From Escherichia coli (GTDB taxonomy: Bacteria; Pseudomonadota; Gammaproteobacteria; Enterobacterales; Enterobacteriaceae): a stretch of 64,000 nucleotides of DNA. The stretch lies in NCBI RefSeq assembly GCF_003334405.1, contig NZ_QOWM01000010.1. One strand, written 5' to 3'. Below are positions 14,470-14,760 of this stretch, piece by piece. Below the pieces are notes generated by a model. It was not told where the DNA came from and made no database searches. It worked only from the letters and a program-made list of their open reading frames with translations. Position 1 is the stretch's first letter; each line of letters begins with the position of its first letter. The position numbers and the translations under genes are program-made.

Positions 14470-14760
14470 CATTGCGGATGCGCTGCTTTAGGGTGGCGCA
14501 TTTGGCATCGACGCATGACTGCCGGATGCGGCGTAAACGCCTTATCCGGCCTACGGTTCAGGCACAGGTTTGTAGGCCTGATAAGACGCGTAAGCGTCGC
14601 ATCAGGCAATGGTGCTCGGATGCCGGATGCGGCGTAAACGCCTTATCCGGCCTACGGTTCAGGCACAAGTTTGTAGGCCTGATAAGACGGGTAAGCGTCG
14701 CATCAGGCAATGGTGCTCGGATGCCGGATGCGGCGTGAACGCCTTATCCGGCCTACGAGA
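14470..14760. repeat. BIME array: two tandem copies of a roughly 101-bp unit (each containing inverted REP palindromes) plus a partial third copy
   Basis: Units 14521..14621 and 14622..14722 are near-identical (gccggatgcggcgtaaacgccttatccggcctacggttcaggcac...gtaggcctgataagacg.gtaagcgtcgcatcaggcaatggtgctcggat); ORF-track ORFs here are artefacts of the repeat. Confidence 0.9.

Follow-up and report, generated by a model that had tools for sequence, protein, structure and literature searches.

The tandem repeat analysed here lies between the genes copA and ybaQ of Escherichia coli, in a window of 64,000 nucleotides (the whole stretch of DNA that was analysed, to whose positions all coordinates refer unless another sequence is named). 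The two genes are convergent, and their identities are those given by the first-pass annotation of this DNA. Their spacer, 14464–14778, is 315 bp long. The array occupies most of this K-12 spacer. The 3'UTR of copA enters it from one side and the 3'UTR of ybaQ from the other. Over 915 bp at this locus, the window is 100% identical to several K-12 derivatives. In the RefSeq feature table of NC_000913.3, only CDS features are present at the locus, with no repeat_region. The features are as follows.

11959–14463, + strand: copA, Cu+ exporting P-type ATPase (834-aa ORF; RefSeq annotation under the match)
14474–14503, + strand: non-REP leader hairpin, GCGGATGCGCTGC-TTTA-GGGTGGCGCATTT, beginning 10 nt past the copA stop
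14521–14554, + strand: Y-type REP 1 (GCCGGATGCGGCGTAAACGCCTTATCCGGCCTAC), 1 mismatch to the Y consensus; −21.3 kcal/mol as + RNA and −20.9 kcal/mol as − RNA
14555–14571, no strand: tail-to-tail linker 1 (GGTTCAGGCACAGGTTT), 17 nt, at the S motif position
14572–14607, − strand: Z2-type REP 1, inverted relative to Y, 0 mismatches with a free loop; −21.9 and −21.4 kcal/mol
14608–14621, no strand: head-to-head linker 1 (AATGGTGCTCGGAT), 14 nt, at the l/s/r motif position
14622–14655, + strand: Y-type REP 2, identical to REP 1
14656–14672, no strand: tail-to-tail linker 2, with a G>A variant at 14668
14673–14708, − strand: Z2-type REP 2, 1 mismatch; −18.6 and −17.5 kcal/mol
14709–14722, no strand: head-to-head linker 2, identical to linker 1
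14723–14756, + strand: Y-type REP 3, terminal, loop GTGAA, 0 mismatches to the Y consensus
14757–14778, no strand: unique 22-nt tail, from the last REP to the ybaQ stop codon
14779–15120, − strand: ybaQ, HigA-family antitoxin-like regulator of 113 aa (RefSeq annotation, translation)

At the 5' end of copA (window 11959–12170, MG1655 511168–511379), RefSeq places a second, joined CDS within the gene. It corresponds to the soluble Cu(+) chaperone, a programmed-frameshift product, which is known and unconnected with the repeat.

Only one array, at 14520–14757, was called by Tandem Repeats Finder: it has a period of 101 and a score of 455, and holds 2.4 copies with 97% matches and 0% indels. A repeat search likewise finds three in-register copies, at spacings of 101 and 101. 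The earlier description of two near-identical units and a partial third copy is thus accurate, although its phase was set one base later. The units 14520–14620 and 14621–14721 differ at two positions: 14567 G against 14668 A, and 14589 C against 14690 G. The C>G at 14690 breaks one upper-stem pair of Z2 REP 2, and the Rfam alignment marks this pair as non-standard. What is present of a third copy is the 34-nt Y REP (14723–14756), whose loop has G at 14737 against A at 14535 and 14636, and from 14758 on it departs from the unit sequence. Each unit is composed of a Y REP, the 17-nt tail-to-tail linker, an inverted Z2 REP and the 14-nt head-to-head linker, giving the order Y-Z2-Y-Z2-Y. Every allele examined has a final Y REP followed by the same tail. 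The 17-nt linker is also kept in every allele, as well as in E. whittamii and E. albertii.

The assignment of the REPs is based on consensus searches and on Rfam. The search strings are what we take to be the Y and Z2 consensus sequences, indirectly corroborated by the Rfam RF02564 model and by the description in PMC3333891. The Y string has 5 matches in the window and the Z2 string 3, where 0.00 are expected from 100 dinucleotide-preserving shuffles. In the array the alternation is strict: all Y matches are on the + strand and all Z2 matches on the − strand, each with 0–1 mismatch. Y and Z2 are genome-wide families, with 14–62 matching places in every genome by BLAST. Rfam RF02564 (naRNA4), which models a Y hairpin, a linker and a Z2 hairpin of REP325 and whose gathering score is 59.5 bits, gives four matches at the Z2-linker-Y junctions 14575–14652 and 14676–14753, on both strands. 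The − strand matches score 89.3 and 79.9 bits, those of the + strand 64.0 and 63.6 bits. In the alignment, nearly every base of the hairpins agrees with the model, and the linker is left unaligned. At the sequence level, this match confirms the REP types and their architecture, not orthology or the presence of an sRNA gene. The alternating Y and Z2 REPs, together with scores above threshold for a model of Y plus Z2, bear out the initial identification of the repeat as a BIME.

Two classes of BIMEs are distinguished. BIME-1 is single-copy and joins one Y to one Z1 REP through a long L linker, in which an IHF site is often present (PMC3333891). In BIME-2, Y is combined with Z2 and repeated several times in tandem; the linker is the short S, and the flanks are s, l or r (PMC3333891, PMC1187871). 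BIME-2 linkers differ in length and sequence (PMC3333891), and DNA gyrase binds and cleaves BIME-2 (Espeli and Boccard 1997, cited in PMC3333891). Within a locus, BIME copies are closely similar to one another, and strains differ in how many they have there (PMC3333891, PMC1187871, citing Bachellier et al. 1997). The copA-ybaQ array lies wholly inside the spacer 14464–14778 and is therefore extragenic. Its copies are in tandem, and its linkers, judged by length, are short (17 and 14 nt). On every testable character of the class, the copA-ybaQ array is a BIME-2, and it contains five REPs.

Two other REP loci are present in the window. At 21811–21894, between the convergent genes gsk and ybaL, there is a BIME-like pair consisting of an inverted Z2, 14 nt and a Y. 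This head-to-head linker has the same length as that of the copA array, but its sequence is different. The other locus is a solitary Y-type REP (33346–33379, − strand; 1 mismatch), located where mscK and ybaM converge. Each of the three REP loci of the window is thus flanked by convergent genes.

Single REP hairpins fold at −17.5 to −21.9 kcal/mol on both strands, Z2 REP 2 being the weakest. The RNA of the whole spacer folds with z = −8.05 for the + strand and z = −7.25 for the − strand, and 0/100 shuffles fold as well. In the MFE folds of both strands, each REP does not fold alone; Y pairs with the neighboring Z2 in long hairpins. Every predicted REP hairpin contains internal mismatches. A terminator consensus scan of both strands of 14464–14778 found no GC-rich hairpin followed by a T-run.

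The leader hairpin at 14474–14503 is conserved across all Escherichia alleles. The K-12 version, at −15.0 kcal/mol, is weakened compared with the perfect 14-bp hairpin (611–642; −24.0 kcal/mol) of L004 (NZ_CP070170.1), which represents the REP-free 57-bp allele. Its 3' arm is altered in all REP-bearing alleles at the divergence point, GGCGCAT/CCG versus GGCGCAT/TTGG (the slash marks this point). Since the arm changes exactly where the REP-bearing and REP-free sequences diverge, the comparison points to the leader hairpin as the site where the REP-bearing segment has its boundary.

Unit number was compared across E. coli with a BLAST query containing only the flanks, made by fusing the final 300 nt of copA with the final 300 nt of ybaQ. 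This query matched 5,422 of 5,426 complete E. coli genomes. Both halves are adjacent in 4,791 of them, and ybaQ is not adjacent to copA in 631 of the 5,422. Spacer lengths were determined in a systematic sample of 60 of the 5,422 records, taken at even steps down the ranking from a database biased to clinical isolates, and REP counts were taken from one or two sequenced representatives per spacer class. The distribution is as follows.

517 bp: 1 of 60 genomes, 9 REPs
416 bp: 2 of 60 genomes, 7 REPs
315 bp: 13 of 60 genomes, 5 REPs
214 bp: 10 of 60 genomes, 3 REPs
113 bp: 13 of 60 genomes, 1 REP
57 bp: 14 of 60 genomes, 0 REPs
ybaQ non-adjacent: 7 of 60 genomes

In this sample of 60 genomes, all spacer lengths above 57 bp fall on an exact 101-bp ladder, and the arrays of the sequenced representatives always open and close with a Y REP. 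The strain-variable copy number anticipated by the first-pass annotation is therefore seen at this very locus, as alleles of 1, 3, 5, 7 and 9 REPs together with a REP-free allele. Unit 1 and, after it, the terminal Y make up the 3-REP allele (L002). The 7-REP allele (L006, L009) is the K-12 array with one additional copy of unit 1, and the variants of K-12 unit 2 (unit positions 48 and 70) are retained in its unit 3. The 9-REP allele (L005) has private variants of its own. Spacers of 113 bp or 214 bp are seen in genomes whose flanks are 98.2–98.8% identical to those of K-12, and K-12-like flanks are accompanied by spacers of 214, 315 or 416 bp. Similar flanks carrying different spacer lengths indicate that the unit number has changed more than once. 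All sampled K-12 laboratory derivatives have 315 bp, which indicates that the array is stable on laboratory timescales.

Several rearrangements around ybaQ were encountered in the same survey. Breaks in the BLAST alignments (H51, H37 and H54) were considered as possible IS insertions into a REP. This was rejected, as the sequences are instead an unjoined 7-REP allele (L009) and ybaQ-deletion alleles (L010 and L011). In the latter (L010 2801–3128 and L011 2801–2971), a short 3' stub of ybaQ (TTACGCGACC... and CTACGCGACC..., respectively) is fused to the upstream region of ybaP. One of these alleles is derived from a 3-REP allele and the other from a REP-free allele. Two different deletion alleles with different parent alleles imply that ybaQ was lost independently at least twice. 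In two other representatives (L007 2830–3100, and L008, with a copA-ybaP spacer of 428 bp), a GC-rich element of ~266 bp replaces both the BIME and ybaQ, a replacement carried by ~12% of genomes. This element is a dispersed, unannotated repeat found at 1–8 places (median 3) per E. coli genome. It shows a sub-threshold Rfam match to TwoAYGGAY (31.5 bits versus 43), and the window contains no copy of it.

The gene ybaQ itself may be a remnant. In K-12 it resembles an antitoxin left without its toxin, from a higBA-like module that would have been acquired horizontally, inserted between copA and ybaP, and then decayed. It looks like an orphan because a frameshifted RelE/ParE-family toxin pseudogene is found directly upstream of ybaQ in strains with the REP-free 57-bp spacer (L004 1035–1257), and because ybaQ is missing in Citrobacter, Klebsiella, E. 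albertii and E. whittamii.

To assess the age of the element outside E. coli, a collection with one genome per species was scanned with a codon-degenerate pattern for the CopA C-terminus, giving 47 loci. The gene directly after copA is ybaP in Citrobacter, Klebsiella, Enterobacter and related genera, which have neither ybaQ nor a Y/Z2 array at this place. In Klebsiella, copA is followed by a classical hairpin with a T-run. In E. albertii, which has no ybaQ, the leader hairpin is the same, a Y REP again starts at +58, the S-like linker is shared, and the Z2 is degenerate. E. whittamii likewise lacks ybaQ; its element, also at +58 and with the same linkers, is Y-S-Z2-l followed by the initial bases of a further Y. 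In Escherichia sp. MOD1-EC7003, one Y REP is present, and so is ybaQ. Between the E. whittamii unit and K-12 unit 1 there are 6 differences over 101 positions, and in the copA flank 18 over 300. Within arrays, units are separated by 0–4 differences per 101 bp, and the flanks of different strains by 7–10 per 300 bp.

Based on these comparisons, the element is old, at the genus level, and predates E. coli, since E. albertii and E. whittamii share it and the divergence of the E. whittamii unit matches that of the copA flank. The individual duplications are young, since the distances within arrays are at or below the divergence of the flanks between strains. It is largely established that the genus Escherichia already possessed a Y-S-Z2 element just past copA, and that E. 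coli lineages have since repeatedly acquired and dropped entire 101-bp units, yielding 1, 3, 5, 7 or 9 REPs. The likely mechanism would be unequal recombination or replication slippage between direct repeats that are 98–100% identical. Unequal crossing-over and replication slippage are established behaviors of tandem repeats. It can be speculated that TnpA-REP, the REP-associated transposase, may also help in the gain or loss of units at copA-ybaQ, by analogy with other BIMEs, from which alone the data come that it cleaves and recombines BIMEs in vitro (PMC3333891).

Could the array have a simpler origin? It might be a young, locus-specific duplication of otherwise unique DNA, or owe its uniformity to ongoing gene conversion, and the 98% identity of the K-12 units and the short distances within arrays fit such a view. 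Its building blocks, however, belong to the genome-wide Y and Z2 families, and the Y-S-Z2 core is found with the same linkers in E. albertii and E. whittamii. The K-12 unit-2 variants are intact as unit 3 of the 7-REP allele, which argues against rapid homogenization and for the gain and loss of whole units. A young duplication of unique DNA, or gene conversion, is therefore improbable as the explanation. Of the two suggestions made in the first-pass annotation, that of a recent duplication of the copies holds, and that of ongoing gene conversion is unnecessary. A single long imperfect palindrome, the condition under which the tandem reading would have failed, could be proposed since Y and the inverted Z2 are partly complementary and each Y pairs with the adjacent Z2 in the MFE folds. 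The 101-bp direct periodicity with 0% indels, the in-register copies, the alleles differing by exact multiples of 101 bp, and the failure of a repeat search (seed 9) to find any long inverted pair within the array make this scarcely credible. The repeats are direct and in tandem, and the palindromic character resides inside each unit, which holds two inverted REPs able to pair in RNA. ORFs of 40–134 aa do overlap the array, for example at 14472–14738 (+ strand, 88 aa) and at 14558–14710 (− strand, 50 aa). That the array is protein-coding has nevertheless next to no probability: a unit of 101 bp is no multiple of 3 and every step between alleles changes the reading frame, a quarter of the sampled genomes are without the array, and the sequence consists of dispersed extragenic palindromes.

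Two further readings concern what the array binds or encodes. REP clusters are generally cited as IHF sites (PMC3333891, introduction), and the first-pass annotation had listed IHF along with gyrase among the possible binding partners. An IHF-binding BIME-1 (RIP/RIB) element would be expected to contain Z1, and yet the second REP type in the array is the 36-nt Z2, with no Z1 assigned in any allele. The linkers are 17 and 14 nt and not a long L, the array is tandemly repeated and not single-copy, and no match to the IHF consensus WATCAANNNNTTR is present in 14464–14778, the nearest being at 15031, within ybaQ. IHF binding belongs to BIME-1 and, given the Z2 REPs, the short linkers and the lack of WATCAANNNNTTR, is not expected at this array, so that a BIME-1 identity is very hard to maintain. 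It might also be proposed that the array encodes naRNA4-like nucleoid-associated sRNAs that bind HU and condense the chromosome. The four RF02564 matches above the gathering score, on both strands, point in this direction, and the Y-l-Z2 RNAs of REP325 were proposed to bind HU, as homologous REPs might (PMC4550694). The match is, however, carried by the REP hairpins with the linker unaligned, which implies that the model recognizes generic BIME-2 junctions, and both strands score because the unit is quasi-palindromic. As evidence for a specific sRNA gene, the match was rejected. The copA-ybaQ locus is also distinct from REP325, and deletion or overexpression of REP325/naRNA4 left nucleoid volume and REP-REP contacts unchanged in a study from the same laboratories (bioRxiv 10.64898/2026.03.23.713779). 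An sRNA locus of this kind is quite unlikely here. As a whole, the data are with high probability best explained by a BIME-2 array whose 101-bp units have been gained and lost in Escherichia, with a two-way role at 3' ends that would follow from its class.

The proposed role of the BIME-2 array is based on what is reported for other REPs. REP325 is reported to act as a partly Rho-dependent terminator and as a stabilizer of upstream mRNA (bioRxiv 10.64898/2026.03.23.713779). According to the same preprint, both members of a convergent pair tend to be more highly expressed when REPs lie between them, while REP effects are context-dependent and REP-associated genes do not have longer half-lives genome-wide. 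Dar and Sorek found that PNPase and RNase II trim Rho-dependent transcripts to stable stem-loops, 24% of which are REPs (PMC6061677). The term-seq data of that study discard multi-mapping reads and would be blind inside near-identical units. A literature search on the copA-ybaQ locus found no data on transcript 3' ends, half-life, gyrase or Rho, and in the supplements of the 2026 REP preprint copA appears only in a differential-expression table.

At copA-ybaQ, each REP transcribed from either gene would be predicted to fold as an RNA hairpin of about −18 to −22 kcal/mol. Since the spacer contains no terminator with a hairpin and U-tract, transcripts probably read into or through the array, and would end by partly Rho-dependent termination as at REP325. 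The 3'-5' exonucleases would trim such transcripts back to a REP hairpin, and the hairpin would protect the upstream mRNA. By this analogy, the array would be a two-way 3'-end barrier or insulator for copA and ybaQ, and its most likely role could be considered as providing stable RNA hairpins in both 3'UTRs, which would block exonucleases and partly terminate transcription. The lack of an intrinsic terminator in the spacer fits this picture of Rho-dependent termination and trimming. The array is dispensable, as about a quarter of the sampled genomes (14 of 60) have the REP-free 57-bp spacer with ybaQ present.

It might be speculated that the unit number, ranging from 0 to 4.4, is a heritable and reversible dial for the 3'-end formation or stability of copA and/or ybaQ mRNA, held by selection in each lineage. 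Similar flanks with different unit numbers are compatible with this, and equally with neutral slippage. We regard such a dial as doubtful. The general significance of the locus is small, because BIME-2 arrays and the polymorphism of their unit number have been known since the 1990s and were restated in 2005 and 2012. The natural allelic series of 0, 1, 3, 5, 7 and 9 REPs behind the well-studied, inducible copA would be a convenient test bed for the current model of REPs as terminators and stabilizers. In the typing and assembly of E. coli genomes, length variation and a possible collapse of the near-identical 101-bp units should be expected at copA-ybaQ.

Compared with known systems, the array shares GC-rich hairpins located between convergent genes and present on both strands with intrinsic bidirectional terminators, from which it differs in having no T-run after the hairpins. 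With the substrates of REPIN/RAYT (TnpA-REP) systems it shares inverted REP doublets, GTAG by the hairpin foot and a stem mismatch. On the + strand every Z2 opens with GTAGGCC..., and on the − strand every Y does. Binding of TnpA-REP in vitro requires both a GTAG located 5' to the foot of the hairpin and a mismatched stem (PMC3333891). No tnpA-REP gene is adjacent to the copA-ybaQ array. BIME-1, including RIP and RIB, has in common with the array the Y REP and the extragenic place at 3' ends, whereas its Z1 REP, long L linker with an IHF site and single-copy state are all absent here.

REP325/naRNA4 resembles the copA-ybaQ array in its Y and Z2 hairpins and its tandem architecture, and the array scores above the RF02564 threshold. 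REP325 is a BIME-2 of 12 REPs between yjdM and yjdN, inside an operon, while the copA-ybaQ array has five REPs and lies between convergent genes. The head-to-head linker AATGGTGCTCGGAT is comparable in length to the naRNA4 linker, but their sequences are different. With BIME-2 in the nomenclature of Gilson, Bachellier and Hofnung, the array shares the alternating Y and Z2 REPs, the short linkers, the tandem amplification of units, the near-identity of copies, the extragenic place at the 3' ends of genes and the strain-polymorphic unit number, and there is no difference of substance. As a class, the array is thus already known, and what is added here is the locus-specific ladder of alleles and its age at the level of the genus.
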